From positions 32,001 through 96,000 of the forward strand of contig CAVVTZ010000005.1 in the NCBI GenBank assembly GCA_963751275.1: 64,000 nucleotides of DNA, read 5' to 3'. Made by a program: the position numbers and the translations under genes. Shown here piece after piece: positions 25,315 through 43,384 of the stretch. The first letter of the stretch is position 1. The number at the start of each line of letters is the position of its first letter. Source of the DNA: an uncultured Gemmatimonadaceae bacterium (GTDB lineage Bacteria; Gemmatimonadota; Gemmatimonadetes; Gemmatimonadales; Gemmatimonadaceae). The notes below the pieces were generated by a model. It made no database searches. It had not been told where the DNA came from and saw only the letters and a list, made by a program, of their open reading frames with translations.

Positions 25315-26358
25315 TTAGGACCTCGTAACGCCTTCGGGAGGCTCCTCGTCGCCCGGCGGCCGCGGCGGGGGGATCGCACTCGCCAGGAGCGCCTCGATCG
25401 CGCTCTGCCGCGCCGCCCGCTCGGTGGCCTCTTCGGACGCCAGCATCGCGTCCAGGCGACGCCGGTCGCGCCGCCGTCGCGCCGAGTACAGCGGGATCAG
25501 CAGGAGCCCGAGGACCGATGCGAGCACGGTGATGTTCGCGAGCAGCGCGAGCGCGCCGTACCGGCGCATCGTGCGCGCGCGCCAATCCTTCTCGAACGAC
25601 GCCGCCGTGAGACCGTACGCCTCGCGCATCGCCTTGTCCATCGACCCGGTCGCGCGCCACCGCTCCAGGAAGAGCGACAGCCCGCGCACGGTGTCGATCT
25701 GCGCGAGATCGGCGACGGCCCGGTACGCGAGCGCGTATGCGGTGCCCGCCCGCACGGCGCCGCCGGTGAAGCCGGCATCGAGCGAATCGAGCGGTGGCAT
25801 GCCGCCGAGCACGAGGCCCACGCTCGCGGCGAGCACTTCGTCGCGCGCCCACTCGCGCGCGCAATAGCTGGCGTAGCCCTCATCGAACCAGCGCGGCGGC
25901 AGGTCGCCCATGGTCTCGAACAAGGCGAGATGCGCGAGCTCGTGCCGCAGCACGGACACCGGCTCACCGGCATCCGAGCCCGCGTGACTCCCCTGCATCA
26001 CGATCCGGCGCTCCGAGGGGATCGCGATCGCCGCGCCCCACTCCGGCGCGCCGGCGCCCGTCCACTCGCGGAACTGCCGCGCGCCCGGAGCGATCGCGAT
26101 GAGCACCGCGTCCCGCGGACGCGGCAGGCCCGGGAACGTGTCGCGCGCGGCCGCGCTGTCGAGCAGCGTGCGCGCGAGCGGCAGGTCGGCATCGCCCGCC
26201 ATGATCGTGAAGCGTCCGGCGGTGAGGCGCGTCATCTTCCCGTCCTGCGCGCGCGCGCCCGCCGGCGCGGCGAGCGCCAGCAGCAGCGCTACGATGAACG
26301 CGAGGGAGTGCCGCCGTCCTCGACGTGCTTGAGCATCTCGCCGCAGCGCTTCCCCCAT
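25315..26358 (-). CDS. Exported, C-terminally anchored peptidase MA-family (gluzincin) metallopeptidase; start uncertain
   Basis: Signal peptide (AFIVALLLALAAPAGARAQ), HELAH zinc motif followed by PRWFDEGYA, C-terminal TM and basic tail. Confidence 0.75.
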   Translation of the reverse strand: MGEALRRDAQARRGRRHSLAFIVALLLALAAPAGARAQDGKMTRLTAGRFTIMAGDADLPLARTLLDSAAARDTFPGLPRPRDAVLIAIAPGARQFREWTGAGAPEWGAAIAIPSERRIVMQGSHAGSDAGEPVSVLRHELAHLALFETMGDLPPRWFDEGYASYCAREWARDEVLAASVGLVLGGMPPLDSLDAGFTGGAVRAGTAYALAYRAVADLAQIDTVRGLSLFLERWRATGSMDKAMREAYGLTAASFEKDWRARTMRRYGALALLANITVLASVLGLLLIPLYSARRRRDRRRLDAMLASEEATERAARQSAIEALLASAIPPPRPPGDEEPPEGVTRS

Positions 26359-27150
26359 GGATTGAACTTGTTGGCGGCGAGTCCGTCGCGCCACGCCTGC
26401 TTCGCATCCTCCTGCTTGCCGTCGAACCAGAGCGCGCGGCCCAACTCGTAGTACGCTTCGATCAGGTTCGGCCCGATCGCGAGCGTCTTCCGGAAGAAGG
26501 TCTGCGCATCCTCGTACATCTCGCGCTCGGCATACGTGAGCCCCAGGTAGAAATGCGCGTAGAGCGTCGCCTTCCGGTCGTTGTCGAGGCGGATCGCCTT
26601 GGAGAGATGCTCGATCGCCTCGCCGAAGATCTTCTTCTTCAGGCAGATGTATCCGAGGTTGATGCGCGCCAGCGAGTTCGTCGGCTGGCGCATGAGCACC
26701 TTCTGGAAGTTGAGCAGCGCCTCGTCGTACTTCTCCTGCAGCATCTGCGCCCAGCCGAGCAGCGACTCGGTCTGCGGATCGTTCGGCGACAGCTCGAGCG
26801 CCTTGAGCAGCGCCTTCTCCGCGCCTTCGTGATCGCCGAGCGAGATGAGGCTCCATCCCTTCTCGATGAAGGTCGACGCGCCGATGTGGTCGGCGACCAC
26901 CGGTCGCTCGCTCACGAACTCCGGCGCGTTCGAGGGCGCGGTGGATTGCTGCAGCTGCTTCCACCGCTCGACGAGCTTCTTCACATCATCGCGCAGCGCG
27001 GTCATCTCGTGCGATCTCCTGCTCCGTCTGCTTGAACAGGCTGATGATCTCGCCCTTGATCGCGTCGCGCGCGTCCGGCGCGCCCGCGTCCTCGAGGCGG
27101 GCGGCGATCGCGTCGTACTGCTGGCGCAGGCTGTTCGCGTCGTCAGTCAT
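26289..27150 (-). CDS. Coiled-coil plus TPR protein (frameshift near 27010)
   Basis: N-terminal heptad region, then about 5 TPRs (KALELSPND, NLGYICLKK, YLGLTYAER, ELGRALWFDG). Confidence 0.8.
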
Positions 27151-27620
27151 GCGTCGCCGCCTTCACCGCTTTCTTGAGTTCGACCCGCTCGCTCGAGTTG
27201 AGCAGATGCGGCACATCCAGGAAGATGATGAGTCCGTCGTCCTGGCGCACGAGGCCGCGGAGATACTCGGCCTTGAGCCCGCGGAAGACCTTCGGCGGTT
27301 CGGCGACCCGGTCCGCCGGGATCGTCGCCACTTCGAGCACGGCATCCACGATCGCGCCGATCCATTCGTCGCCGGTGGCGAAGATGATGATCCGCGTCTC
27401 CGGCCGCGGATCGCGCCGCTCGAGACCGAATCGCGCGCGCAGGTCCACGACCGGCACCACTTTCCCCTGATGCTCGATCACGCCCTCGAGCCAGCCGGGC
27501 AGGTTCGGCAGCACGGTGGGCTTCGCGTAGCGCAGCACGCGCTCCACCGCCGCCACATTCGCCGGCGAAGCGGTCGTCGCCGAGGCGGAACGTCACGACC
27601 TGCTGGAGGGCGCCGGTCAT
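27143..27620 (-). CDS. cheW: CheW (frameshift near 27560)
   Basis: QVVTFRLG, LPNLPGWLEGVIEHQGKVVPVVDLR, GAIVDAVLEV. Confidence 0.88.
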
Positions 27621-28084
27621 GCGCGCGCTCCGAGGCACGCGCGCACGAGCGCGTCGGGATCGCACACCGCCACGAGCTCCGCGCCGCGTGGCAGCACGCC
27701 CGAGAGCACCGGCTCCGCCGACGCGGGGCCGGGCACCGGGCGCAACGACGCGATATCGGCGAGGATCACATCCTCCACGTCGTCCACGATCACGCCCACG
27801 CGGCCGCCGCGGCCGCGCACGACGAGCGTGACCTCGTCCCCCGCGCCGCTCCGCGCGATGCCGAATACCTGCTCCGCCGCGTACACCGGCAGCCGCGCGC
27901 CGCGATACTGCGCCACGCCCGCCATGTCGCGCGGCATGCCCGGCAGCGAATGGCGCTCGAGCGCTTCCACGGCTTCCTCCGCGTTCGCGAGCGGCATGGC
28001 GAAGAACTCCTTCCCCACGCGGAAGAGCAGGAATTCCGCGAGCCCGGTGAGCGGAGCGGCCGGCGCGGCATCGATGGGCGTCAT
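27617..28084 (-). CDS. cheW: CheW
   Basis: FLLFRVGKEFFAMPL, GVAQYRGARLPV, VGVIVDDVEDV. Confidence 0.85.
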   Translation of the reverse strand: MTPIDAAPAAPLTGLAEFLLFRVGKEFFAMPLANAEEAVEALERHSLPGMPRDMAGVAQYRGARLPVYAAEQVFGIARSGAGDEVTLVVRGRGGRVGVIVDDVEDVILADIASLRPVPGPASAEPVLSGVLPRGAELVAVCDPDALVRACLGARA

Positions 28085-29217
28085 GTCCTCTCCTTGCGCG
28101 TGACCGGGCGGCCGGCGCGTGCGGGCGTGGAGGGCGGCCGCCGCGCCGCGACGGTCTCGGCGATCGCGGCCGCGATCTCTCCCAGGGCGACGACGCGCGT
28201 CGCGCCCCCCGCCGCCGCGGCGGCCTGCGGCATGCCGAAGATGATCGAGGTCGCGCGATCCTGCGCGATGCCGGTCCCGCCGGCGTCGCGGATCGCGCGC
28301 AGTCCCTCGGCGCCATCGCGCCCCATGCCCGTGAGTACGACGCCGATCGCCGCGCCGCCCAGGCACTCGGCGGCCGAGCGGAAGAGCGGATCGGCCGCGG
28401 GGCGCACGCCCCAGATCGGTGGTCCATCGTCGAGCGCGAGCGCGGGGCCATCGGCGCCCGCCCGCAGGCGCAGGTGGCGTCCGCCGGGGGCGATGTACAC
28501 GTGGCCGCGGCGCAGCAACTGGCCATCTTCGGCCTCGCTCACCGGCATGCGGCTGTGCGCGTTGAGGCGCTCGGCGAGACTGCGCGTGAAGCCGGCGGGC
28601 ATGTGCTGCACGACGACGACGGCGGCGTCGAGCGTGCGCGGGAGCGCGGGGATCACTTCGGCGAGCGCGCGCGGTCCGCCGGTGGAACTCGCGATGGCCA
28701 CGACGCAAGCGGCGGCGGCGCTGGCCGGCGCTCCGCGCACTTCGGCCGACGGGATCCGCCGCGCCGATCCGGCTTCCGTGAACGCCGCGACGCCGCGGAG
28801 ATTCACCTCGGCGGCGGCGCGGAGCGCCTCGAGCAGCGGACCGCGCACCGTCGCGAGATCGAGGCTGATCGGGCCGGATGGTTTCTTCAGGAAATCCACG
28901 GCGCCGAGTTCCAGGGCGCGGAACACGGGATCGTTCGGCCCGCCGGTGGCCGCGCCGCTCAGCATCACGACCGGCCGCGGCGATTCCTGCATGATCCGCT
29001 CGAGCGCGGCGAGGCCATCGAGCTCCGGCATCTCGATGTCCATCGTCACGATGTCGGGCTCGAGCGCGCGCACCTTCTTGAGCGCGTCGGCGCCGTGGCG
29101 CGCCGTGCCCACCACGCGGAACTCGCCCGACCCGTCGATGAGATCGACGACGAGCTTGCGCATGAAGGCGCTATCGTCCACCACCAGCACGGTGCGCAGG
29201 GCGCTAGAGCTCGACAT
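28081..29217 (-). CDS. cheB: Response-regulator methylesterase CheB
   Basis: REC domain (VVDDSAFMR, TMDIEMP) plus the STGGP / QHMP / GMGRDG Ser-His-Asp triad. Confidence 0.96.
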   Translation of the reverse strand: MSSSSALRTVLVVDDSAFMRKLVVDLIDGSGEFRVVGTARHGADALKKVRALEPDIVTMDIEMPELDGLAALERIMQESPRPVVMLSGAATGGPNDPVFRALELGAVDFLKKPSGPISLDLATVRGPLLEALRAAAEVNLRGVAAFTEAGSARRIPSAEVRGAPASAAAACVVAIASSTGGPRALAEVIPALPRTLDAAVVVVQHMPAGFTRSLAERLNAHSRMPVSEAEDGQLLRRGHVYIAPGGRHLRLRAGADGPALALDDGPPIWGVRPAADPLFRSAAECLGGAAIGVVLTGMGRDGAEGLRAIRDAGGTGIAQDRATSIIFGMPQAAAAAGGATRVVALGEIAAAIAETVAARRPPSTPARAGRPVTRKERT

Positions 29218-29687
29218 TGCCCCTCGCCATCGAGCGCACTTCGACGCGCCCGTCACCCGTGTGGAAGTACACGCTGCGGCCGTGTCCGCCACCGACGTCC
29301 TCGCCGATCACCGGGATGCGCGCGAGCGCGAGCGCCTTGCGACTCGCCAGGAGATTGCGCTCGCCGATCTGCATGCCGGTGGAGGAAAGCAGCGACGTGA
29401 ACATGCTGGCGCCGCCGACGAGGCGCGCGGTGATGCGGCGGTCCAGCGCGCCCAGCGCGCGCATCTCGCTCGAGGAGCAGCGGCACCGCGGAGGACGGGA
29501 ACTTCGCGCGATTGCTGCGGTCGCGCGCCATCGAGTCGCTGGGCAGCAGCACGTGCGCCAGGCCGCCCACCTGCGCCTCGGGGTCGTGGAGCACGATGGC
29601 CACACAGCTCCCCAGGCCGATGCTGGCGATGACCGCATCCCCCTGCGCGACCGCGGCGTCGGCGACGTGCACGCGGATCTCCTTCAC
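29204..29687 (-). CDS. cheD: Chemoreceptor glutamine deamidase CheD (frameshift near 29470)
   Basis: GLGSCVAI, GGLAHVLLP, GGASMF, IGERN, EDVGGGHGRSV. Confidence 0.93.
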
Positions 29688-30505
29688 GACGCCCGGCGGA
29701 AGATGCGCTCGCGCGCATCCACGACCTCGAAGCGCGACCGCGCGGGGCCGGTGAGCGTCTCGACTTTGCCCTGGAAGAGCAGGCCGCCGGGGGCGAGCGC
29801 GTCGTGGAACTTCTCGAGCAGCGCCTCCTGGGAGCGGCGGTCGAAGTAGATCGTGACGTTGCGGCAGACGATGAGCTCGAACGGGCCGCCGGGCGGCGGA
29901 TCGGCGAGCAGGTCGTGCCGGCCCAGGCGGACGAGCGCGCGCACGGCCGGCGCGATGGCGTACGGCCCGTCGCCGGGGAAGTACGCGGCCCGCAGGTCGG
30001 CGGGCACGTCGGGCAGCGTGGACGCGTCGTACACGGCGCGCTCCGCCGCCTCGAGGCTAGCCGCGTCGATGTCCGTGCCGACGATCTCCACCGCGCGCGC
30101 CTTCTTGCCGAGCGCGGCGAGACGACGGTGCACGAGGATCGCGAGCGTGTAGGTCTCCTCGCCGCTCGCGCAGCCGGCGCTCCAGATGCGCAGCGGCGTG
30201 CGCGCCGCGGTGATCAGCGGCGCGAGCACTTCCGTGTCCAGCGCCGCCCACGCCTCCGGGTTCCGGAAGAAGCGCGTCACGTTGATGGTGAGCGCATCGA
30301 GGAGACGGTCGTACTCGGCGCCGTCGCTGTCGAGCACGCGCGCGTAGTCGCGGTAGGTGTGCACGCCGCGCGCGCGCATGCGCACCGCGATCCGGCGGCG
30401 CAGGCACTTCTCCTTGTAGCTCGCGCAGCCGAAGCCGCGCTCGCGCGTGATCTTGGCGGTGAGCGCCGCGAAATCCGCGTCGGACAAGGCGGTGCCGGCC
30501 GTCAT
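29684..30505 (-). CDS. cheR: Protein-glutamate O-methyltransferase CheR
   Basis: TINVTRFFRN, RIWSAGCASGEE, GTDID, IVCRNVTIYF. Confidence 0.95.
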   Translation of the reverse strand: MTAGTALSDADFAALTAKITRERGFGCASYKEKCLRRRIAVRMRARGVHTYRDYARVLDSDGAEYDRLLDALTINVTRFFRNPEAWAALDTEVLAPLITAARTPLRIWSAGCASGEETYTLAILVHRRLAALGKKARAVEIVGTDIDAASLEAAERAVYDASTLPDVPADLRAAYFPGDGPYAIAPAVRALVRLGRHDLLADPPPGGPFELIVCRNVTIYFDRRSQEALLEKFHDALAPGGLLFQGKVETLTGPARSRFEVVDARERIFRRAS

Positions 30506-32127
30506 GCGGGCATCGTCCTCACGAGATCGAGGTTCGTGCGGATCACTTCGTTCTCGGGGTTGAGCGCGAGCGCACGCTCCCAGTAGGCGAGCGCCTGGTC
30601 CTTCTCCTGCCACTTGAAGCGGATGTTGCCGAGCTTGAAGTACACGTCATCGCCGAGCGCCGGGTCGAGCTTGATCGCACGCTGGAACGCCTCGAGCGCC
30701 TCGTCGTAGCGCGAGCTGCGATAGAGGCAGTCGCCGAGGTTCTTGAACAGCTGCGGGATCGAGCCATCCTCGTGCAGGCCGCGCTCGGCCGCCTGCGCGG
30801 CGGCGGCCATGTCGCCGCGTCGCTCGTGCACCGCCGCGAGCGTGTTGTAGAGCACCGCGGCGTGCGGATGCAATTCGACGCCCTCGTTCACGATCTCGAG
30901 CGCGCGGTCGAGCTCGCCGGTGAGCGCGGCGGCGAGCGCCGCATAGTGGAACCACGCCGGCGATGGCGGGCGCTTCCCCCAGAGCAGCCGCGATGCGGTG
31001 AGCAGCGCATCGGCCTCATCCACGTCGCCGCTCTTGAGCGCGAGCACGCCGAGCGACGTGCGGATGCGCGGATCGTCCTGGCCGCCGCGCTGGATCGCCT
31101 CCTGCAGCGCCTCGCGCGCGTCGTCGTAGTGGCCCATGCGCTCGAGCGCGTAGGCGAGGTTGTGGAAGATCGCCGGGCGCACATTGGGCTGCGCGCCGGC
31201 CTCGCGCAGCGTGAGCACGGCCTCGGACCACTTCCCCTCGCGCATCGCGACGAGCCCGAGATAGAATCGCGCGGGGACGTCGGTCTCGTTCAGCTCCACC
31301 ACGCGGCGGAACTCGCGCGTGGCCTCCTCGAACATCGCGGTCTTGTAGAACGCGACGCCGAGGTTGCGGTGCTCCTCCACGCGCGCCTCGCGCACGCCGT
31401 CATCCACCGGGCGCGACTTGCCGGCGCGGTGGAGGAAGCCCGCGGTCGCGAGCGCGTACAGCGCCTTCCCCACCTCGAACTCGCCGATCCCCGAGGCGTC
31501 GATGAGCGTCGTGACGTCGCGGCGGCCATCGATGAGCGGGATCAGCTGCTCCTGCGTCGGCGTCAGCTGCGCCTCGCTCTGCGACAGGCGCGCGCGGTCC
31601 ACTTCGAAGATGATGTCGAAGCTCGGCACCTTCTTCTCGATCAGGCTCCACTCGTCCACGCGCCGCGCGCCTTCCAGCAGCAGCGACTCGGGATTGATCG
31701 ACACGAGGACGTCGTGCTCCTCGGGGCGCATGTCGGCCTCGAAGCTGAACGTCCCCTGCGTCCACGTGAAGAGGTAGTACACCGCCTCCTCGATCTGCAC
31801 GCGGATGTAGCGGTGCAGCTCCTCGCGCGTGAGGATCTGCTGCTCGATGAGGATCTCGCCGAGCCGCTTGCCGCGGTGCGCCTTGCTCTGCGCCTCGATC
31901 GCGACGTCGAGCTCGAGCTGCGTGACCACGCCGTGCTTCACGAGCAGGTCGCCAAGGCGGTCGCGGCGGTTGACGATGGACGCGTACGAGATGCGCCCGC
32001 GGTCGAAGAAGATGTAGCCGAAGTTGTTCCGATCGGCGACCGACAGGCAGCCGGTCTTCTGCCCCATGGCGAGGAGCTGCAGGACGTCGGGGAGCGACGC
32101 CTCCTTGAGACTGCCCTTGATCGCCAT
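30502..32127 (-). CDS. DUF4388 (PATAN-like) + tandem MshEN-like motif + TPR protein
   Basis: GSLKEASLPDVLQLL..KTGCL, RLGDLLVKHGVV..L...I..Q, FTWTQGTFSF, LLLEGARRVDEW, C-terminal TPR array. Confidence 0.85.
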   Translation of the reverse strand: MAIKGSLKEASLPDVLQLLAMGQKTGCLSVADRNNFGYIFFDRGRISYASIVNRRDRLGDLLVKHGVVTQLELDVAIEAQSKAHRGKRLGEILIEQQILTREELHRYIRVQIEEAVYYLFTWTQGTFSFEADMRPEEHDVLVSINPESLLLEGARRVDEWSLIEKKVPSFDIIFEVDRARLSQSEAQLTPTQEQLIPLIDGRRDVTTLIDASGIGEFEVGKALYALATAGFLHRAGKSRPVDDGVREARVEEHRNLGVAFYKTAMFEEATREFRRVVELNETDVPARFYLGLVAMREGKWSEAVLTLREAGAQPNVRPAIFHNLAYALERMGHYDDAREALQEAIQRGGQDDPRIRTSLGVLALKSGDVDEADALLTASRLLWGKRPPSPAWFHYAALAAALTGELDRALEIVNEGVELHPHAAVLYNTLAAVHERRGDMAAAAQAAERGLHEDGSIPQLFKNLGDCLYRSSRYDEALEAFQRAIKLDPALGDDVYFKLGNIRFKWQEKDQALAYWERALALNPENEVIRTNLDLVRTMPA

Positions 32128-34059
32128 TACCGGAGATCCTCGATCGCGCGGCCCGACACGTCAGGCCAGTCCCACACGACCTTCTCCTCGTCGAGGAAGA
32201 AGCTGTCGGCCTCGCGGCCATCGATCACGCGCGCCGGCGCGGGCGCGAAGCCGCCGCCCTCGAGCTCCTTCCGCGCGAACGACGCGTTGAGCGGCACGCC
32301 CACGACGCCGGCCGCCTTCACGAGGCGGTCCACCGTGGCCGCGAGCTCATCGACGTTGGCCACCGCGCGCGCCGAGAGGAAATCGACGAGCACGCGGTCG
32401 GCGTGCTGCCCCGACGCGGCGAGCATGCGCGCATAGAGCTTCTCGCGCAGCGAATGGTCGGGCGGCTGGATCTCGACCACGAGCCCGCCCTCGAAGCGCG
32501 AGCGCAGCCGGTCCTCGAGGCGCTCGATCTGCCGCGGCGCGCGGTCGGCGCCGAGCACGATCTGCTTGCCGGCCGAGTAGAGGCTGTTGAAGACGTGGAA
32601 CAGTTCCTCCTGCGTGCGCTCGCCCGTGGCGCAGAGCTGCACGTCGTCGATCAAGAGCGCATCCACGAGGCGGTAGCGCGCGCGCCACCGCTCGATGGTG
32701 CCTTCCTGCAGCGCGGCGATCAGCTCGTCGATGAACTGCTGCGCGTTCACGCACGCGACCGGCCGCGCGCCGCCGCCCGCCGCGATCATCTCGTTCGCGA
32801 GCGCGTGCAGCAGATGCGTGACGCCCACGCCGGGCGGCCCGTACAGGAAGAGCGGATTGTACTTCCGCCCGGGTTCGAGCACGACCGTGTCCGCCGCGTG
32901 CACCGCGAGCTGGTTGGAGGGCCCCACCTCGAACGTCGCGCGCGTGAGGTCCGGATCGGGTCCCGGCGGCGGCTCGGCGCCCCCCATCTGCCGCGCGACC
33001 AGCAGCTCCGCCTCGCCCACGCGCTCGGGATCCTTGAACACCTCCGACTCCGCGAGCACCGGATCGAACCGCATCGCCTCCTGTTCGAGTGCGCGCAGCC
33101 GCGCGATCGACGCTTCGTAGCCCTGCAGCAGCGCGTCGACGTCGGGCTCCTCCGTCTGCTCGAGCGTGCGCTCGAGGAGCGTCGTGCCGTAACCCAGCTG
33201 GTGCCAGTACGTCATCGCCTCCACCACGCGCACGCGCCAGGTGTCGATGTGCTGCGCCACCACGTCGCTGAGGTCGGAGAGGAAGCTCGCGAACTCCTGG
33301 CCGCGCGCCGGCGCCTGCGCCATCACCGGGGCCGGCATCGGGCTTCTCACCGAGCAGCTCGCGCACGTTCCGCACCGTCACCTCGGCCTCGCCCAGCGTC
33401 TGGCAGGCGATGAGGCGGTTGAGCGCGCCCTGCAGCTCGCGCACGTTGGAGAAGTTCATGCGCGCCACTTCGTCGAGCACGCCAGGCTCGAACGCCGCCT
33501 GGCGCTCCTCGCACTTCGCGCGCAGGATCGCGACGCGCGTCTCGTAGTCGGGCAGCCCGACATCCACGACCAGGCCGCCGGCGAAGCGCGAGATGAGCCG
33601 CTCGTCGAGGTCCGCGATCTCGTTCGGCGGCCGGTCGCTCGTGAGGATGATCTGCTTCCCCGCGCGCTGCAGCGCGTTGAAGAGGCGCAGCATCTCGCTC
33701 TGCGTCTCGCGCCGGCCGGCGAGGAACTGCACGTCATCCAGCAGCAGGATGTCCACGTCCTGGAAGCGCTGCTTGTAGTTCTCGATCGTGCCCGACGACA
33801 CGGCGGCCGTGAGCTCCTCGACGAACTCGTCGAGCGTGATGTACAGCGAGCGCAGGCTGGGCTGCAGCTGGATCGCCAGGTGGCCCACGGCGATCATGAG
33901 GTGCGTCTTGCCGAGCCCCGAGCTGCTGTAGATGAAGAGCGGGTTGTACGCCGTGCCGGGCGCCTGGGCCACGGCCTTCGCGGCGGAGACCGCGAGACGA
34001 TTGGCCGACCCGACGATGTAGTTCTCGAAGCGATAGCGCGGATCGAGCTCCACCGTCAC
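32127..34059 (-). CDS. Tandem DnaA/Hda-family AAA+ protein lacking DnaA domains I and IV (one frameshift near 33340)
   Basis: Repeat 1: YRFENYIVGSANRLA, YNPLFIYSSSGLGKTHL, LLLDDVQF, RLISRF, NVRELQGAL. Repeat 2: FEVGPSNQLA, YNPLFLYGPPGVGVTHL, LLIDDVQL, RLRSRFEGGL. Confidence 0.85.
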
Positions 34060-34665
34060 CGGCTCCCCGCGGGCGCCGCGGCGCTCAGCCGCCGCAGGAC
34101 GAGCTCGCGCGATGCCGCGCAGCGTCTCGAACACGCCCGCGCCGTGCAGCGCGTCCGCCGCGAAGGACGGCACGCCGCGAAAATTCAGCGCGTCCTCCAG
34201 CGCGGGCACGCCGAGGATCATCTCCGACGGCAGGTCCTGCTTGTTGTACTGGATCACGAGCGGCATGGTGCGCACGTCGATGCCGTGCTCGGCCGCGTTC
34301 GTGTGCAGGTCCTGCATGCTCTCGATGTTCTCCTGCAGCTGGCGCGCCTGGCTGTCGGCCACGAACACCACGCCGTCGGCGCCCTGCAGCACGAGCTTCC
34401 GGGTGGTGTGGTAGTACACCTGGCCCGGCACCGTGTAGAGCTGGAAGCGCGTGGTGAATCCGGAGATCATCCCGAGATCGAGCGGCAGGAAGTCGAAGAA
34501 GAGCGTGCGGTCGGTCTGCGTGGCGAGCGAGACCATCTTCCCTTTCCGGTCGCGCGGCACCTGCTCGTAAATGTAATGCAGGTTCGTCGTCTTCCCCGAA
34601 CGGCCGGGGCCGTAGTAGACGATCTTGCAGGTGATCTCGCGGGTGGCGTAGTTGACGAGGGACAC
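34056..34665 (-). CDS. mglA: MglA-family Ras-like small GTPase (frameshift near 34110)
   Basis: KIVYYGPGRSGKTTNL, RTLFFDF, YTVPGQVYY, GADGVVFVADS, NKQD. Confidence 0.93.
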
Positions 34666-34672
34666 GGCGCGC

Positions 34673-35188
34673 TCAGGAAGTCGGGGGGACGATCGCGTCC
34701 CCGTTGGCGGCGCCGGCGGGCACGCGGCCGAAGAGCGCCGCGAGACTCCGCGCGAGATCCTGCTCGAGGCTCGCGGCCGCGAGCGGCGGTCCGTCGGCGC
34801 GCGGCGGCACCACCGTGGCGAGGCGCGCCGAGAGCGTGCCGAAGAACACGCGCACCAGGCCGAGTGAACTCTCGTCGCCGAACGCCGTCAGAAGGATGAA
34901 CGCGTCGCGCGCCGTGCGCACCTCGCCGATGAACACGTGGCGGTCGCGGCCGGCATGATAGAGCTCGCGGAAGGGCTTCCCGTCGAGTTCGCGGCCGAGC
35001 TGGCCGGCCGACGCATGGATGCCGGCGGCGAGCGCGCACGCCGCCATCACATCCACCGCGCGCGTGAAACCGAACTGGCCCAGCACCTGGCCGCTCGGGT
35101 GCAGCAGCAGCGCGAAGAGCACGCGCGCGTCGTCCACGAACTCCTGGAGCGGCGCCTCCACCCAGGCTTCGGCGACGTGGGTCTTCAC
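34673..35188 (-). CDS. Divergent roadblock/LC7 protein, MglB-like
   Basis: ALLLHPSGQVLGQFG, ALAAGIHASAGQLG, FRELYHAG, FGDESSLGLVR. Immediately upstream of mglA. Confidence 0.75.
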   Translation of the reverse strand: MKTHVAEAWVEAPLQEFVDDARVLFALLLHPSGQVLGQFGFTRAVDVMAACALAAGIHASAGQLGRELDGKPFRELYHAGRDRHVFIGEVRTARDAFILLTAFGDESSLGLVRVFFGTLSARLATVVPPRADGPPLAAASLEQDLARSLAALFGRVPAGAANGDAIVPPTS

Positions 35189-35532
35189 GTGAGCGACTCC
35201 ACGCTCTGGAGCATCGCGCCGCGGATGAGCCCGATGTGCGCGCGCGGCTCGGCGAGCGTGATGATCACGAGTCCCTCGCGGCCGACCACGCACACGTGGC
35301 CGTCGGTGGCCTCCAGCTGGAGGAAGGTCACCTGCCCCAACCCCGCCGCCTGCGACGACAGGCGCGCGCGCCGGTAGAGCGCGGCCGCGAGCGCCGCGAC
35401 GACGCTCTCCGGCACCCCCACCTGGACGTTCGAATCCACGATGATCCCGTCGCGCTCGCCCACCACGAGGCAACCCAGCACGCCGCGCTGGCGGATGAGC
35501 GTCGCGAGGAGATCCTCGAACGGGGAGCTCAT
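35185..35532 (-). CDS. Roadblock/LC7 domain protein (MglC-like)
   Basis: GVLGCLVVGERDGIIV, VAALAAAL, LEATDGHV, IGLIR; 115 aa. Confidence 0.85.
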   Translation of the reverse strand: MSSPFEDLLATLIRQRGVLGCLVVGERDGIIVDSNVQVGVPESVVAALAAALYRRARLSSQAAGLGQVTFLQLEATDGHVCVVGREGLVIITLAEPRAHIGLIRGAMLQSVESLT

Positions 35533-36374
35533 CCGACCTCCGACAGCCACATCGTGGCGCGGCGCACGCAGCGGTCGAGCACGCGCCGCACGAATCCGAG
35601 CGGCATCGCGTGCGATGCCGCGACGAGCACCATCGAGTCGTCGAGCGCCGGCGCGATCGCGACCACGGCGACATCGGTCTCGTACAGGACGAGCTTCCAC
35701 TCGCCGAGATCGAGATGGCGCACGGTGCGCTGCGCATCATCGCGCACGCCGGAGAGCTGCGCGCCCACCTCCTGCGCGACGTCCTCGCCGGTGGCGCTCA
35801 CGTAGGCGCCCGCGGTCACGAGGCCATCGGAGTTGAGCAGGAGCGCCGTCTGCTCGCCGTCGCCCAGGATGTCGGCGAACAGGAAGTGCGCTTCCTCCTC
35901 TACGCGACGCTGCGCCGCCTCGAGCTCGGCGGGCCCCGGTTCGCTCGCGCCGTTGCCCGCGAGCCGCGCGTAGCGCAGCAGGCGGCGCACCATGCGCAGC
36001 GCCGTCGAGATCGACGCGTCGGAGCGGTCGCCCGACGCCGCGGCGCTGAGGTGGTCCTCCGCCTCCTCGAGTTTCCCCTGCTTGTACAGGACGTAGCCCA
36101 TGCCCTTGCGCGCGCCGACGTGGTTCGGCGCGAGGCGCAGCACCATGTCCCACTCGTCGAACGCCTGCTCGAGCTCGTTGCGGTCCACGCAGATGCGCGC
36201 GAGCAGATCGTGCGCGTCGGCGTTGTGCGCATGGCGCTCGAGGCCGCGCGTCGCGACGCGCAGCGCGAGATCGAGCTGCCCGCCCTTCCGCAGCGCTTCG
36301 CCGAGCTGCAGGAAGACCAGGCTCGACGGGTCGCGGGCGAGTTCGTCGCTGAGGCGGCGGATCTCGTCAGACAT
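35529..36374 (-). CDS. TPR + roadblock/LC7 fusion protein
   Basis: N-terminal TPRs (DPSSLVFLQLGEALRK..., LAPNHVGARKGMG) and C-terminal ALLLNSDGLV...MPLGFVRR roadblock pattern. Confidence 0.75.
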   Translation of the reverse strand: MSDEIRRLSDELARDPSSLVFLQLGEALRKGGQLDLALRVATRGLERHAHNADAHDLLARICVDRNELEQAFDEWDMVLRLAPNHVGARKGMGYVLYKQGKLEEAEDHLSAAASGDRSDASISTALRMVRRLLRYARLAGNGASEPGPAELEAAQRRVEEEAHFLFADILGDGEQTALLLNSDGLVTAGAYVSATGEDVAQEVGAQLSGVRDDAQRTVRHLDLGEWKLVLYETDVAVVAIAPALDDSMVLVAASHAMPLGFVRRVLDRCVRRATMWLSEVG

Positions 36375-37773
36375 CGCCGAGCTCCTTCATCGCATTCCGC
36401 AGTCGCGCGGCCGCATCGGCCACGGCACGCACGTGCGAGGTGTCGGGGGCATCCGGCGCGAGGCGCTGGTAGCGCTCCCAGCCGGCGACGGCGTCCGCGA
36501 GATCGCCGCGCGACGCGGCGCAGGCGCCCAGCAGCAGGTACAGCGCGGGATTGAGCGCGTCGCGCTCGAGCGCCGCGCTCACCGTCTCCAACGCATCGTC
36601 CACCTGCCCCCCCTTGAGCTGGGCCCGCGCGAGCACGATCCGCGCCTCGACGGAGCCGTTGCTCGCGGCGACAGCCGCGGTCGCGGCATGCACCGCCTCA
36701 TTGACGTGGCCATCGCGGAGCGCCGCGTGCGCGCGCTCGAGATGCGCCAACGCATCGTCGCCTTCGCGCGCGACGGTCTGCGTCATCCGGGTCGTGCGCG
36801 TCGCGCGCACGGGCCGCGGGGGCGGCGGCGGCGCGGACGGTGGCGCGGGCGGCGGCGCGGCCACCGGCTCGGCCGCCGGCGCGGCGTCGGGCGGCGTCAT
36901 CACCGACGCGCGATGCATCCCCGTGTGCTCGAGCGACGGCACGTGCAGCAGCGATCCGGGCAGCGACACGACGTCCGGCGCTTCGGCGGCGCGCGCGGGC
37001 GGCGTCGCGCGGCGCGGCGGCAGCGACGGCGGAGGCGGCGGCGTGCCCGTGCCCGGCCGCAGCTCGACGATCCCGGTGGTCACCAGCCCGTAGATCACGC
37101 GCGCCACGTCGAACTCGCTCATCGACGTCGAGTTCGAGATCTCGCGCAGATCGCGCGATCCGTCGATCTGCGCGAGCACTTCCCACTCCTTGGGCAGCAG
37201 GTCGAGCGCGCCGGCGTGATCGGTGTCCACGCTCGAGAGCACCGGGACCACGCCGAGGTGCGGCACCTTCCCTTCGATGAGCGACCACTCATCGATGCGG
37301 CGCGCGCCTTCCATGAGCAGCGACTCGGTGGAGATGCGGATGTCCGCCTCCACCGGCGCGTCCGTCACCTCGCCTTCCTCGAAGGAGAAGAAGCCTTCGC
37401 GCCACGACATCATCTCGAAGACCACTTCTTCCACCTGGATGCGCACCTGGCGCTCCAGCTCCTTGCGCGAGAGCGCGCCGGCCTCGACGAGGATCGCGCC
37501 GAGTTGCCGCTTGTCCCCCTCGCGCCGCTGCTGTTCGCGCATGCGCGTGAGATCGCCCTCGGTGATCTTGCCCGCGCGCAGCAGCAGTTCGCCCAACCGG
37601 TGCGGATTGCTGCGGATGGACGCCGAGAGCACGCCGCCCCGGTCGAAGTACACGGTACCCTGGTTGTCGCGCAGCACCGACGTGACGGTGAGCGTCCCGG
37701 TCTTCCGGCTCAGGTCCAGCAGCTGGAAGACATCGTGGATGCCGAGCTCGCGGAGCGGGCCTTCGATCGCCAT
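36367..37773 (-). CDS. DUF4388 + MshEN-like + Pro-rich linker + TPR protein
   Basis: GPLRELGIHDVFQLL..KTGTL, RLGELLLRAG, WREGFFSF, LLMEGARRIDEW, C-terminal TPRs. Confidence 0.85.
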   Translation of the reverse strand: MAIEGPLRELGIHDVFQLLDLSRKTGTLTVTSVLRDNQGTVYFDRGGVLSASIRSNPHRLGELLLRAGKITEGDLTRMREQQRREGDKRQLGAILVEAGALSRKELERQVRIQVEEVVFEMMSWREGFFSFEEGEVTDAPVEADIRISTESLLMEGARRIDEWSLIEGKVPHLGVVPVLSSVDTDHAGALDLLPKEWEVLAQIDGSRDLREISNSTSMSEFDVARVIYGLVTTGIVELRPGTGTPPPPPSLPPRRATPPARAAEAPDVVSLPGSLLHVPSLEHTGMHRASVMTPPDAAPAAEPVAAPPPAPPSAPPPPPRPVRATRTTRMTQTVAREGDDALAHLERAHAALRDGHVNEAVHAATAAVAASNGSVEARIVLARAQLKGGQVDDALETVSAALERDALNPALYLLLGACAASRGDLADAVAGWERYQRLAPDAPDTSHVRAVADAAARLRNAMKELGDV

Positions 37774-40490
37774 CAGCTGGCCTCCTGGCGATGCCGGAAG
37801 ATCCGGAGCAGGTCGGACGCCGTGCGCATCTCGCGCCGCGCGTTCTTGCCGAACTCGCCGTCGGGCTCGAGCTCCACGACGCGTTCCCATTCGCCGATCG
37901 CTTCGCGATAGCGGTGCTGGTCGGCCAGCAGCACGCCATGCAGGAAGAGCGCGCCCACGTGCCGCGGGTCGAAGCGCAGCACGCGCTCGATGGAGATGGC
38001 GGCGTCGCGCGGCCGGTCCAGCTCCAGCAGCGTCTCGGCGAGCACGAGCAGCGCCTCCACGTTGTACGGGTCGCGGCGCAGCAGGTCCACGAGCGGCGAG
38101 AGCGCGTCCTTCGCGCGGCCGAAGCGCCGGCGCACCTGCGCGAGCGCGAGGGTCGCCTCGACGTACGTGGGCACCGCGTCCAGCGCCGCGAGCAGTTCGG
38201 TCTCGGCGCCGGTCGCATCGTCCCGCTCGGCGAGCAGCCGGCCGAGTTCGTAGTGCACCACGGCGACGTCCGGATCGAGATCGAGCGCGTTCTTGTACGC
38301 CGCGATCGCCCCCTCCACGTCGCCGGCGGCGCGCGCCACATTGCCGAACTGGCGCAGCACATCGGCGCGCGCCGGCGCCAGCCGCCGCGCGTTCTTGAGC
38401 AGCTCGCGCGCCGCCGCCGGATCGCCCGCGTCGGCGCGCGCGCTGGCCACCAACAGGATCGATTCGACGGTGGATGGATCCGCGAGCAGCAGTTCCTCCG
38501 CCACCGCGCGCGCCTGCTCGGAGCGTCCCAGCAGCAGCAGCGCCCGCGTCTCGCCCGCGAGCGCGCGCGGCGCGTTGGCCGTGACGCTCCGCGCGTTCTT
38601 GTACCGCTCGAGCGCCTCGCCGTGCAGCCCCTGCCGGAGGAAGATGTCGCCGAGCAGGATCAGCCCTTCGCCGGTGTTCGCGCCGCGCACGAGCGCGCGG
38701 TTCACCTCGGCAGCCGCGCGGTCGAGCATCCCCTTCGAGAGATACTCCACCGCCATCGCGTACGCCGTCTCGAGCGGCGCGGCGGCGGTCTCCACCGGCG
38801 GCGGCGTGAGCGGCTTCAGCTCCGTGAACAGCGCATCGAGCCGCGCGGAGTCGAAGGCGAACGTCTCCACCGCCTGCTCCACGCGCTGCGCGTCGCCCAG
38901 CGCGGGGGCGATGGAGAGATCGGGATCCTCGTACTCGAGATCGATCGCGAGCTCGAACTTCTGGCGCACGTAGAACGGATCCAGCTCCAGCGCGCGGCGC
39001 GTGGCGCGCAGCGCCCCCTCGAAGTCGCCGAGGTTCGAGAGCGTGAAGCCGAGGTTGTAGTGCGCCTCGGCGTAGTTGGGCCGCGTGTGGATCGCGCGGC
39101 CGAAGGCGTTGCGCGCGTCCTCGTACTTCTTGAGCTCGGCGAGCACGAGGCCGATGCCGTTCCACGCCACCGGCTGCTCGGGATCCACCGTGAGTCCCTG
39201 GCGGTACGCCTCGAGCGCGAGCTGCAGCCGCTTCCCCTGGTAGAGCAGCAGCGCGAGGTTGAGCCACGCCTTCACGAAACCCGGATGCGCGGCGAGCGCG
39301 GCGCGGAACGCATTGATCGCGGCGTCGGTGTTGCCGCCGTGGTACTCGGCGACGCCGAGGTTGTTGTGCGCGATGGCGTACGCCCCGTCGAGCGCCAGGG
39401 CGCGACGGTAGCTCTCCGCGGCTTCGCGATGCCGGCCCTCCTGATGCAGCGCGACCCCGCGCTCGCACCAGAGCTTGGGGCTCTCACTCTCCTCTTCGAG
39501 CAGCCGGTCGTACAACTCGATCGCCGACTTCGGATCGCGCTTGAGCAGGTGTACTTCGGCCATCGCCTGCAGCACCAGCGCGCGGTCTTCCTCCCGCTCG
39601 AGGGCGAGCCGGTATTCCCGCAGCGCCTCGGCGTAGTAGCCCTTCTGCCGGAAGGCGAGGCCGAGGTTGTAGTGCGCGAGCCCGCCCTCCGCCGCGACCT
39701 CCATCTGCGACGAGCGCCGCTCGTGCCGCTGCGGTACGAGCTCCTCGTACTTCGCGGCGTTGTAGCGGTCGATCGACAGGTTCGCCTGCGCGCGCGAGAG
39801 CGAGGGGTTGAGCTGGATCGCGCGCTTCGTGGAGGCGCGCGCCTCCTCGTGGCGGCCGAGGTCGCCGAGGACGAAGCCGAGCAGGTAGTGCGCGTCCGAG
39901 TTGTCCGGGTTGATGTCGATCGAGCGGCGGAGCGCGACGAGCGCCTCCTCGTTCAGTCCGCGGTTGTAGAGCACCTCGCCGATGTAGAAGCTGATGAGCG
40001 GGCTCTTCGGCTCCAGCGCCAGCGCGCGCTCGAACCAGCGCTGCGCGTGCTCGAGATCGCCGCTCGCCTTCTCCGCGAGGCCGAGCTGCACGATCGCGCC
40101 GGCGTCATTGGGATGATGCTCGAGGATCGCGGTGAACTCGGCGACCGCCTCGGGCACGTCGCCGAGCGCGGCGTAGGCGCGTCCCAGCTCCCAGCGCGCG
40201 TCGCGGTCGTGCGGATGCGAGCGGAGCCGGTCGCGCAACTCGGCGACGCGCCGGTCGTAATAGCCGGTGTTGAAGTACGCGACCTCGAGATTGCGCTGCG
40301 CCACCTGCATCTTGGGGTCCAGCTCCAGCGCCTGCTCGAACGACGATACCGCTTCGGCGTACATCCCCTTGTTGTAATAGAGGACGCCGAGGTTGTTGTG
40401 CGCCCCCGCATCGGATGGATCGATGCGCCGCGCGAACGACCGCAGGATGTCACGGTCGCGCTGCGACACGGGGGACAAGGGGCTCGTCAC
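37773..40490 (-). CDS. Large cytoplasmic multi-TPR protein (905 aa)
   Basis: Repeated AHNNLGV / AHYNLG / AWNGIG ... ALELDP TPR units over nearly the whole length. No signal peptide. Confidence 0.9.
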   Translation of the reverse strand: MTSPLSPVSQRDRDILRSFARRIDPSDAGAHNNLGVLYYNKGMYAEAVSSFEQALELDPKMQVAQRNLEVAYFNTGYYDRRVAELRDRLRSHPHDRDARWELGRAYAALGDVPEAVAEFTAILEHHPNDAGAIVQLGLAEKASGDLEHAQRWFERALALEPKSPLISFYIGEVLYNRGLNEEALVALRRSIDINPDNSDAHYLLGFVLGDLGRHEEARASTKRAIQLNPSLSRAQANLSIDRYNAAKYEELVPQRHERRSSQMEVAAEGGLAHYNLGLAFRQKGYYAEALREYRLALEREEDRALVLQAMAEVHLLKRDPKSAIELYDRLLEEESESPKLWCERGVALHQEGRHREAAESYRRALALDGAYAIAHNNLGVAEYHGGNTDAAINAFRAALAAHPGFVKAWLNLALLLYQGKRLQLALEAYRQGLTVDPEQPVAWNGIGLVLAELKKYEDARNAFGRAIHTRPNYAEAHYNLGFTLSNLGDFEGALRATRRALELDPFYVRQKFELAIDLEYEDPDLSIAPALGDAQRVEQAVETFAFDSARLDALFTELKPLTPPPVETAAAPLETAYAMAVEYLSKGMLDRAAAEVNRALVRGANTGEGLILLGDIFLRQGLHGEALERYKNARSVTANAPRALAGETRALLLLGRSEQARAVAEELLLADPSTVESILLVASARADAGDPAAARELLKNARRLAPARADVLRQFGNVARAAGDVEGAIAAYKNALDLDPDVAVVHYELGRLLAERDDATGAETELLAALDAVPTYVEATLALAQVRRRFGRAKDALSPLVDLLRRDPYNVEALLVLAETLLELDRPRDAAISIERVLRFDPRHVGALFLHGVLLADQHRYREAIGEWERVVELEPDGEFGKNARREMRTASDLLRIFRHRQEAS

Positions 40491-41107
40491 GCGATCCGGA
40501 TGGCGCGCAGGATCACGCGCAGCGAAGCGAAGTCCGGCAGCAGCAGGAAGAAGCCGCGCAGATGGTCCGCCTGGTCATCGAACAGGAACTGCGTCTCCAC
40601 CGCGAACACCGTGTCGCGGTCGGCGCCGAACTGCGCGTGCGCCGTCGTGAGCACCGCGGCCGACATGTCCACCACGAGACTCGGCGGCGAGGGCAGCAGC
40701 ATGAGACCCAGGAAATCGCTGAGCGCGTTGAGATACGCGCCGCTCAGGATGTTGCCGGCTTCCTTCAGCGCGCTCTGTTCGAGCTCGGCGAAGGGCGCGG
40801 ACGTGTCGCGCGGCCGCCGGAGCATCAGCTGGGCGAGGCGGATCGCCGTGCTGCGCGGGAAGACGAGCAGCGAGCGCCCCGTCAGGTCGCCGAGCATCTG
40901 CATCATCACGGCCGCGATCGGCTCCTCTTCATCCGCGATCTGCTGCGGCACGTCCTCGAGCGCCGCGATCGTGATGTGCGGCACCGAGATCATGATCCGG
41001 CTGTTGGTCATGAGCGAGAGCGCGGTGGCGGCGTGGCCGGCGCCGATGCTCGCCGTCTCGCGGAGCGCGTCGAGCTCCTTCGGCGTCAGGGAGAGAAGGT
41101 CGGACAT
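40487..41107 (-). CDS. cheC: CheC-family CheY-P phosphatase
   Basis: DALRETASIGAGHAATALS, SALKEAGNIL, YLNALSDFL, PSPPSLVVDM. Confidence 0.92.
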   Translation of the reverse strand: MSDLLSLTPKELDALRETASIGAGHAATALSLMTNSRIMISVPHITIAALEDVPQQIADEEEPIAAVMMQMLGDLTGRSLLVFPRSTAIRLAQLMLRRPRDTSAPFAELEQSALKEAGNILSGAYLNALSDFLGLMLLPSPPSLVVDMSAAVLTTAHAQFGADRDTVFAVETQFLFDDQADHLRGFFLLLPDFASLRVILRAIRIA

Positions 41108-41117
41108 GCGCGCTCCG

Positions 41118-42984: not shown

Positions 42985-43002
42985 GCGGCCGGCCCCGGAA
43001 CG

Positions 43003-43371
43003 TCAGCGCGAGCCGACACCCGCTGCACGGCCTCCAGCACGCGGCTCGGCTGGAACGGCTTCACCACGAAGTCCTTCGCGCCCGCCTGGATCGCCTCCAC
43101 CACGAGCGCCTGCTGGCCCATGGCGCTGCACATGAGGATCCTCGCGTTCGGATCGAACTTCGTGATCTCGCGCACGGCATCGATGCCGCCCATGTCGGGC
43201 ATCACGATGTCCATCGTGACGAGGTCGGGCTGAAGCTTGCGTATACTGCGCCACGGCCTGCGCCCCCGTCTCGGCTTCGCCGACGACGTCGAAGCCCGAC
43301 TGCTGGAGGATGTCGCTGATCATCGTCCGCATGAAGATCGCGTCGTCACAGACCAGTACCGTATGGGACAC
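43003..43371 (-). CDS. cheY: CheY, Bacillus/Thermotoga type (frameshifted)
   Basis: VLVCDDAIFMR, TMDIVMPDMGGI, CSAMGQQALVVEAIQAGAKDFVVKPF. Confidence 0.93.
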   Translation of the reverse strand: MSHTVLVCDDAIFMRTMISDILQQSGFDVVGEAETGAQAVAQYTQASARPRHDGHRDARHGRHRCRARDHEVRSEREDPHVQRHGPAGARGGGDPGGREGLRGEAVPAEPRAGGRAAGVGSR

Positions 43372-43384
43372 CGTTACCTCTCGG

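Follow-up and report, generated by a model that had tools for sequence, protein, structure and literature searches.

The 64,000-nucleotide stretch analysed here (the window; positions 32,001 to 96,000 of contig CAVVTZ010000005.1, assembly GCA_963751275.1, from an uncultured Gemmatimonadaceae bacterium) carries a gene for a DnaA-type AAA+ protein, termed the AAA gene below, that lies between the gene for the Ras-like GTPase MglA and a gene for a PATAN(DUF4388)-tetratricopeptide repeat (TPR) protein. The minus strand from 34059 to 32127 was found to encode two Bac_DnaA (DnaA domain III) modules, or heads, with a linker of helices between them and, at the C-terminus, a tail that is conserved. Two minus-strand open reading frames (ORFs) in different frames span this interval. 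The ORF at 32347..34665 (772 amino acids) begins as MglA and meets no stop before a Bac_DnaA match (3.2e-57, residues 207-368), and the ORF at 32127..33350 (407 amino acids) comprises a helical stretch, then a further Bac_DnaA match (4.3e-50, residues 136-293) and then the C-terminal tail. The AAA gene starts with a GTG at 34059, within the sequence GGTGA, and ends at a TAATG at 32129-32125. The chain begins directly at the AAA+ N-terminus (M/V-T-V-E/D-L-D-P-R-Y-R-F, here MTVELDPRYRF), and its C-terminus reads ...SFFLDEEKVVWDWPDVSGRAIEDLR, which extends 10 residues beyond the last residue quoted in an earlier annotation of this DNA (hereafter the original prediction). The G+C content of the region is 70%, and the source assembly, of Gemmatimonadaceae type, consists of 14 contigs and is 83% complete.

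The break between the two ORFs was compared with the sequences of relatives. The intact proteins P0001 and P0002 (643 amino acids, 98-99% identical to the second ORF) cross the junction uninterrupted as ...GEKPDAGPVMAQAPARGQEF..., and they require three C residues where the window has four, at 33328-33331. Contigs assembled from public sequencing runs of relatives showed one base fewer at 33328 in four of four runs and one base fewer at 34108 in all three runs covering that site, the four runs being derived from relatives with approximately 92-95% identity, none of which shared more than 0.23 of the sampled words. At the locus L037, on the chromosome of a Gemmatimonadaceae metagenome-assembled genome (MAG) with 91.7% nucleotide identity, both extra bases are likewise absent, with the gap for the C-run placed at 33327, and an intact ORF of 643 amino acids is present that has both the GTGA and the TAATG overlap with its neighbours. 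In the window, mglA is broken near its end by the second extra base, at about 34108, and for this reason its frame enters head 1.

Similar disruptions affect further genes in this assembly. The true dnaA, on contig C7, is split such that DnaA_N and the AAA+ module lie in one frame and sensor II and the domain IV helix-turn-helix lie in another, and the cheY, cheA and T2SSE genes are likewise split over two frames. Sites of single-base indels were placed at 34100-34115 (mglA), 42780-42800 (cheA) and 43270-43300 (cheY) in the window, at about 2040-2080 of L001 (dnaA) and within G000:C7:519371-521699 (T2SSE). Codon usage in frame, with a G+C content at third codon positions (GC3) of 0.94, persists on either side of the break in the AAA gene. 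Assembly indels are favoured because the essential dnaA is broken likewise, and the frame break in the window is most likely an assembly error. A genuine frameshift in this strain, which would leave either a fresh pseudogene or two polypeptides (one in which head 1 ends in a nonsense tail, the other comprising the linker and head 2 and translated from an internal start), is an improbable explanation. It would account for the extra base being present in the window as assembled, the second frame does offer GTG and ATG codons near 33350 and 33338, and the runs compared came from relatives and not from the same strain. However, the extra base falls in a homopolymer run and is missing from all relatives compared (the run contigs and L037), the assembly has five or more further conserved genes with broken frames, dnaA included, and the in-frame codon usage is unbroken across the site. 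The gene is also frame-broken in the related MAG loci L038 and L040 while being intact in L037 and in L041 (641 amino acids). Gene calls from this assembly therefore need frameshift-tolerant handling. At 33856-33859, relatives have one base out and one in three bases on, giving LQPSLR in the window and LQPQLR in P0001; this difference is either a real variant or a further pair of assembly errors.

The domain anatomy was examined in the intact relative P0001 (99% identical). A Pfam scan at E values up to 1 returned two Bac_DnaA stretches and generic AAA models, with no match to DnaA_N and none to Bac_DnaA_C. An AlphaFold2 model built from an 81-sequence alignment had a mean predicted local distance difference test (pLDDT) score of 90.6, with low-confidence stretches at residues 242-270, at residues 603-616 and in the tail. 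In Foldseek comparison, DnaA domain III was the top match for the heads (8bv3 from B. subtilis; template modelling (TM) score 0.94, 44% identity), followed by 8btg, 2z4r, 3r8f, 1l8q and 2hcb. Identity to domain III of the genome's own DnaA was 50% for head 1 and 47% for head 2. The linker was predicted to be helical when folded alone (pLDDT 84) and carries the conserved motifs FL, WR, W..EG..T..LE and FRDP. It gave 0 Foldseek matches at E values up to 0.001, and comparison with 48,161 chains using VIA-align gave a best Z of 5.7 (EzrA, root mean square deviation (rmsd) 10.3), which is below the meaningful level for helical bundles. In the tail, the second tryptophan is conserved in 173, and the proline in 163, of the 182 family sequences described below.

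Much of the original prediction was borne out by these data. The two DnaA domain III copies and helical linker that it placed in one gene were recovered, and intact relatives of 641-643 amino acids support the fusion. All of its motifs were seen in the DNA, namely GLGKT, DDVQF, RLISRF and NVRELQGAL in head 1, and in head 2 the GVGVT with its GTC codon, RLRSRF, and NVDEL, which stands in the head 2 lid where sensor II would be. The lack of DnaA_N and Bac_DnaA_C that it anticipated was also found. Its single indel needing repair was located between the heads, but a second extra base, that in mglA, has to be added; and of the two gene couplings it described, the TAATG junction with the DUF4388 gene is present in the window, whereas the four-base GTGA overlap between mglA and the AAA gene is seen only in relatives. 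The features are collected in Table 1.

Table 1. Positions of the AAA gene, its parts and its neighbours in the window
Feature	Position	Strand	Basis and remarks
Two-headed DnaA-type AAA+ gene, whole	32127..34059	minus	ORFs and sequence; intact relatives P0001/P0002 and L037/L041; one extra base breaks the frame
Head 1, Bac_DnaA core	33562..34047	minus	Pfam 3.2e-57; GLGKT, DDVQF, RLISRF
Head 1 lid with sensor II NVRELQGAL	after the core, to ~33345	minus	sequence
C-run (CCCC on the coding strand), one base too many; frameshift between the heads	33328..33331	minus	P0001, run contigs, L037
Family-specific helical linker domain	32934..33311 (P0001 residues ~250-375)	minus	AlphaFold2 helices, pLDDT 84-97
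Head 2, Bac_DnaA core	32472..32945	minus	Pfam 4.3e-50; Walker A GVGVT, Walker B DDVQL, box VII RLRSRF
Valine codon GTC of GVGVT in head 2	32820-32822	minus	sequence
Conserved C-terminal tail FFLDEEKVVWDWPDVSGRAIEDLR (EK.VW.WP....R.IEE.R), predicted flexible	32130..32201	minus	pLDDT 46-69; Trp/Pro conservation
PATAN(DUF4388)-TPR gene	30502..32127	minus	DUF4388 7e-39 and TPRs; TAATG overlap with the AAA gene
mglA (Ras-like GTPase)	34056..34665	minus	1e-69 to M. xanthus MglA 6hjh; extra base at ~34108 near the 3' end
Roadblock gene	34673-35206	minus	Pfam Robl_LC7 (MglB-like)
Roadblock gene	35185-35532	minus	Pfam Robl_LC7 (MglB-like)
TPR-Roadblock gene	35529-36374	minus	Pfam Robl_LC7 (MglB-like)
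Enclosing chemosensory operon	26292..43939	minus	Pfam, cheY/cheA frames, synteny

The conservation of the two heads was then quantified. A word-index search yielded a best 120 matches, 111 of them 600-710 amino acids long, and an exhaustive search supplied about 70 more long representatives with identities down to 32%. Motifs were tallied on 182 sequences of 560-740 amino acids, which are kin, with the first 111 skewed to close relatives and with P0170 and P0259 among a small number of outliers in the set. The Walker A lysine was present in 180 of the 182 for head 1 and in 152 for head 2, where valine took its place in 12. The corresponding figures for head 1 and head 2 were 180 and 159 for Walker B, 165 and 86 for the sensor I aspartate, 161 and 161 for the box VII arginine, and 170 and 71 for the sensor II arginine. 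All five motifs were retained together in 150 of the first heads and in 32 of the second. In a FastTree phylogeny of the 182 sequences, the 12 with valine and one with isoleucine filled a single clade of 13 tips (support 1.0), made up of the closest relatives of the window, and parsimony with a midpoint root placed approximately seven changes between lysine and other residues across the tree. Conservation of the lysine-to-valine replacement, one of the tests set by the original prediction, did not hold, the valine state being confined to that one clade. The accompanying description of head 2 as catalytically dead applies to the clade of the window only, since across the family head 2 usually keeps Walker A and Walker B and is without sensors I and II. 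The fusion is thus conserved, the valine is restricted to one part of the family, and most members share the incomplete condition of head 2.

The range of the family was surveyed in 201 genomes of the phylum, the tallies including the unpublished genomes G057, G097, G157 and G182. Full-length matches in one frame were found in families f1, f2 and f3 of the order. Shorter forms were found in f4, f5, f7 and f8, with matches covering residues 2 to about 535 in f4 and in two f7 genomes, and the remaining classes of the phylum gave DnaA-level scores only. A scan of the genomes of 185,579 species for the tail motif returned 379 stretches, of which 356 were confirmed; the pattern used, [SD][RE]EKxVW[DE]W, is narrow and blind to divergent tails, and so sets no bound on the range of the family. 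Among the best 80 stretches, 79 bore Gemmatimonadota-type titles and one came from a 'Thermoleophilaceae' MAG contig, and source names and Atlas clusters likewise indicate Gemmatimonadota. The single exception in title among these 80 (L086, the 14.7-kb contig DATNBJ010000148.1) might reflect either misbinning or a transfer. A pseudogene or decaying dnaA was rejected in view of the conservation across the order and beyond, and the intact relatives argue for one fused gene, as had been proposed, and not two separate ones.

The AAA gene is part of a chemosensory operon. In the order of transcription, the operon encodes CheW, CheY, CheA, CheC, a TPR protein of 933 amino acids, a second PATAN protein, the TPR-Roadblock protein, two Roadblock proteins, MglA, the AAA protein, the PATAN-TPR protein, CheR, CheB, CheW and a TPR protein. 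The three Roadblock/LC7 genes (34673..36374) occur in the same order in relatives. Synteny was assessed in 20 loci chosen for long contigs and taxonomic spread; mglA lay directly upstream of the AAA gene in 18 of them and the PATAN-TPR gene directly downstream in all 20, with two f7 loci having the PATAN-TPR neighbour only and no adjacent mglA. The phyletic pattern of the PATAN-TPR gene mirrors that of the AAA gene. It was present in 35 of 38 f1 genomes, 95 of 96 in f2, 3 of 3 in f3, 4 of 4 in f4, 1 of 1 in f5 and 3 of 3 in f8, as against 0 of 11 in f6, 2 of 23 in f7 and 0 of 21 in f9-f12, and both genes were found in the identical two of the 23 f7 genomes (G116 and G159). Residues 57-111 of the PATAN-TPR protein, a helical insertion in the PATAN domain, matched NF053729, an MshE-related motif for binding cyclic di-GMP (c-di-GMP), with 46.6 bits against a cut-off of 38, which suggests that c-di-GMP may provide an input to the operon through this insertion. 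The same insertion bears two repeats of the type RLG..L....G/Q......L......Q. The second PATAN-domain gene lies at 36400-37780, between the gene for the 933-residue TPR protein and the TPR-Roadblock gene, and tblastn with the PATAN-TPR query gave matches at the same site in 16 of 20 related loci. The genome also holds pilus-type T2SSE ATPases.

A series of natural variants was found in which different parts of the AAA protein are missing. In L034, L035, L036 and L022 the lid of head 2 is replaced by an acidic spacer and the tail is kept, and in L035 and L036 head 2 is additionally without Walker A and Walker B. The linker is nearly absent in L132 (genome G180). L117 (G084) consists of a lidless head 1, the linker, an acidic spacer and the tail, and L129 (G049) encodes a one-headed protein of 392 amino acids with head 1, linker and tail. 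The latter type represents a stable subfamily, with 87 matches of which 81 are 383-401 amino acids long, and the tail is retained in these one-headed forms as well as in the lidless and short-linker forms. L130 and L131 are also one-headed, with degenerate motifs and tails and with box VII lost. Finally, the AAA gene is absent from L120, where the Roadblock genes, MglA and PATAN-TPR are present, from L118, where MglA and PATAN-TPR are present, and from L119, where the whole MglA block is missing.

The length of the PATAN-TPR protein was found to vary with the presence of the AAA gene. At the three of three loci without the AAA gene, this protein has 430-496 amino acids as compared with 541, the last one or two TPRs having been lost by three different routes. 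At the 25 of 25 loci with the AAA gene, the PATAN-TPR protein extends at least to residue 534 of 541. Docking of the tail on the terminal TPRs is proposed because of this co-variation and because the tail is conserved and predicted to be flexible. In two giant relatives, P0164 (1990 amino acids) and P0169 (1876 amino acids), an N-terminal MshEN domain and a DnaA head are followed by some 1200 residues with a high content of Glu, Ala and Leu, after which comes a second head. The central region of these two proteins is a probable coiled coil, the second head has an intact sensor II, and there is no EK.VW.WP tail. A different architecture is seen in P0170 (673 amino acids), in which two Bac_DnaA heads are joined to a Bac_DnaA_C domain (4.2e-24), making this a tandem-headed DnaA that keeps DNA binding.

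The protein was compared with DnaA and with other known systems. Among solved structures, DnaA domain III supplies every one of its best matches, and each head has the box VII arginine in 161 of 182 sequences, which places it in the initiator clade (DnaA/DnaC/Orc type), and its position, linker and EK.VW.WP tail place it in the Che/MglA/PATAN operon of Gemmatimonadota. Each head resembles DnaA domain III in sequence and fold, and the motifs found in head 1 are Walker A, Walker B, both sensors and box VII. Unlike DnaA, however, the protein is two-headed, lacks domains I and II and the DnaA-box-binding domain IV, has the family linker and C-terminal peptide, and is encoded in a signalling operon; after box VII it reads GG where the DnaA sequences compared have Trp-Gly. 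The genome's real dnaA lies on contig C7, with Bac_DnaA_C in the shifted frame of L001, and is followed by dnaN, so that a true dnaA next to dnaN elsewhere, which the original prediction called for, is indeed present, albeit split over two frames in the assembly. The AAA gene lies away from this locus, between mglA and the PATAN-TPR gene. A score of 517.7 bits to the DnaA equivalog model TIGR00362 (cut-off 343.9) was summed from two partial matches at profile positions 103-337 of 437, and the passing of the model through such summed matches explains why members appear in some sources under the name 'chromosomal replication initiator protein DnaA'.

Hda consists of a single head of about 230 amino acids with an N-terminal clamp-binding motif. 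The AAA protein shares with Hda/HdaA the DnaA type of AAA+ module and the lack of domains I and IV. It differs in having two heads and another genomic context, and no clamp motif of the QL[SD]LF type was found when its N-terminus was read by eye. The score to the Hda model TIGR03420 was 169.7 bits, under the cut-off of 194.8, and those to other Hda (NF) models were 37-75 bits against cut-offs of 268-307. In tandem type II AAA+ proteins (p97, NSF, Rix7), which have an active and a degenerate ring, there are likewise two AAA+ modules per chain with catalytic motifs unequally kept, but these belong to the classic clade and the AAA protein is of initiator type, with nothing suggesting closed hexameric double rings; whole-chain Foldseek comparison with p97 and Rix7 gave TM scores of 0.24-0.30 and rmsd values of 21-27 Å, and the heads match DnaA far better. 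The MshEN c-di-GMP receptors (the N-terminal domain of MshE/PilB-type ATPases) have parallels in the motif of the neighbouring PATAN-TPR protein and in the MshEN fusions of the two giant relatives, although the AAA protein of the window has no MshEN domain itself. The M. xanthus Frz chemosensory system, which acts on the polarity module of MglA, MglB, MglC and RomR, is similar, judged from the accessible portions of that literature, in that a Che-type pathway is combined with MglA (in the window a bona fide one, 1e-69 to 6hjh), Roadblock proteins and TPR proteins near MglA; it differs in that here all components lie in one operon together with PATAN-TPR proteins and a DnaA-type ATPase. No mention of DnaA was found in the same portions of the M. 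xanthus polarity literature. A fourth, weak Bac_DnaA match in the genome (27.1 bits over profile positions 23-125) falls within a 269-residue open frame at G000:C9:2194-2502 (L004), whose product may be a DnaC/IstB-like or Hda-like protein. A role in defence was considered and set aside, the NCBIfam matches in that direction being faint (IteA, 20.9 bits against 510; DS8, 17.9 against 790).

We favour, with moderate confidence, the interpretation that the AAA gene encodes a conserved, non-replicative two-headed AAA+ protein, derived from DnaA domain III, that serves as an ATP switch or scaffold of the Che/MglA-Roadblock/PATAN-TPR operon of Gemmatimonadota. What the data show is how the protein is built, that it is conserved, that its neighbours are kept and that terminal TPRs are lost along with it; ATP turnover, oligomerisation, docking of the tail on TPRs and the pathway output are inferred. 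Head 1, in which most members retain all five catalytic motifs, would be the working nucleotide site, and head 2 would be a degenerate, probably regulatory copy, the P-loop lysine of which has additionally been lost in the clade of the window. The parts that appear to persist across architectures are head 1, the helical linker and the flexible EK.VW.WP peptide. By analogy with DnaA-type modules, the protein may self-associate in an ATP-dependent manner, its box VII arginine may act in trans, and the tail may anchor the protein on the terminal TPRs of the PATAN-TPR protein that the next gene encodes. ATP would then be an extra nucleotide input beside MglA-GTP and, probably, c-di-GMP, and the output of the pathway might be polarity or pilus-type motility. 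A more specific scheme, offered tentatively, is that the DnaA-type module is a third nucleotide switch (ATP) of a polarity circuit, in which a short DnaA-like filament, assembled on ATP and held by its tail on the last TPRs of the c-di-GMP-sensing PATAN-TPR protein, would gate the action of MglA-GTP under the chemosensory kinase; on present data this scheme is possible, but somewhat doubtful.

Note, however, that several observations weigh against the interpretation of the AAA protein as an operon-bound ATP switch or scaffold. The predicted TM score of the AlphaFold2 model was 0.54, which leaves undefined how the two heads are placed relative to each other. In a divergent subclade, box VII and sensor I have been lost from head 1 itself, and a division into a working head 1 and a regulatory head 2 is thus not universal. 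The head 1 box VII arginine is also present in 15 of the 16 representatives that lack the head 2 lysine; a simple scheme in which the finger of head 1 serves head 2 fails because this arginine is kept even where that lysine is lost. The AAA gene is cleanly absent in some lineages and hence dispensable there, the three TPR-truncated cases all belong to family f1 and are non-independent kin, and L130 and L131 combine degenerate tails with a full-length PATAN-TPR protein. The identities of 50% and 47% to DnaA leave cross-talk with DnaA physically possible, and the runs compared, being from relatives and not from this strain, are compatible with a strain-specific frameshift.

Three other functions were weighed against a nucleotide-driven role in the operon. 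The protein could be a static scaffold, for which nucleotide would be structural at most, bridging MglA/Roadblock and PATAN-TPR without an ATP cycle. The degeneracy of head 2 in most members and of head 1 in the divergent subclade would fit such a role, as would the one-headed variants without box VII (L130 and L131), but it is considered unlikely because the retention in head 1 of Walker A and Walker B (each in 180 of 182), sensor II (170) and box VII (161) is hard to explain without catalysis. Nucleic acid is another conceivable ligand, since in solved complexes the DnaA domain III fold binds single-stranded DNA (3r8f is among the matches) and both heads have a basic residue within the G-[KR]-x-E/R-T-Q stretch that follows Walker B and has a putative role in nucleic-acid contact. 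If the heads gripped single-stranded DNA or RNA, they might anchor the polarity module to the nucleoid or handle DNA imported by a pilus, and pilus-type T2SSE ATPases are encoded in the genome. With no DNA-recognition domain in the protein, and with conserved neighbours that are all signalling proteins, we regard this as quite improbable.

The remaining alternative was one of two functions suggested in the original prediction, in which an Hda-like protein would donate an arginine finger to DnaA, or cap DnaA-ATP filaments, and so couple polarity to the initiation of replication. The similarity of both heads to the genome's own DnaA, the arginine of box VII in each and the TIGR00362 score speak for such a regulator. 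On the other hand, that score is a sum of two partial matches, the Hda model was not passed, and domain I, domain IV and a clamp-binding motif were not found. The gene is never beside dnaA-dnaN but in a Che/MglA/PATAN operon, it is missing from L120 though the rest of the operon is kept there, and where it has been lost the PATAN-TPR protein, its constant partner, is altered as well. We consider a replication regulator very unlikely, and beyond sequence similarity the link to replication is unsupported. The other suggestion, that the fold of an initiator has been recruited to serve as a switch or scaffold, is consistent with the signalling-operon context.

No publication was found that links a DnaA-type protein with MglA or that describes the two-headed family. 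An overview of small GTPases in prokaryotes (Wuichet and Sogaard-Andersen 2014, PMC4316618) notes, in its accessible portions, PATAN near some mglA genes of groups 1 and 5, and DnaA is not mentioned in those portions of its text. One preprint on PATAN regulators and the pilus motor, likewise accessible in part, mentions DUF4388 and MglA together. New here are the evidence that the frame break is an artefact, the restriction of the lysine-to-valine change to a single clade, the deletion series with its co-loss of TPRs, the MshEN fusions and the annotation trap set by the DnaA equivalog. As to the last of these, a protein that passes the DnaA cut-off may mislead the prediction of origins and the counting of dnaA genes in Gemmatimonadota genomes.

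DnaA-type ATPases are known for loading or regulating the replication machinery. The family described here, which is phylum-wide, has kept the motor and dropped every DNA-reading part, and its gene is flanked, within a chemosensory operon, by those for a Ras-like GTPase of cell polarity and for a PATAN-TPR scaffold. The variant series (two-headed, lidless, one-headed, and absent with loss of TPRs from the partner) amounts to a natural domain-deletion experiment that ranks the parts of the protein. If the signalling role is true, the use of the DnaA fold would be extended to polarity or motility signalling, and an unstudied component would be added to the MglA field. If the third-switch scheme is also true, this would be the first initiator-clade AAA+ protein shown to act purely in protein signalling, and its second head would be a built-in partner drifting to a pseudo-ATPase.

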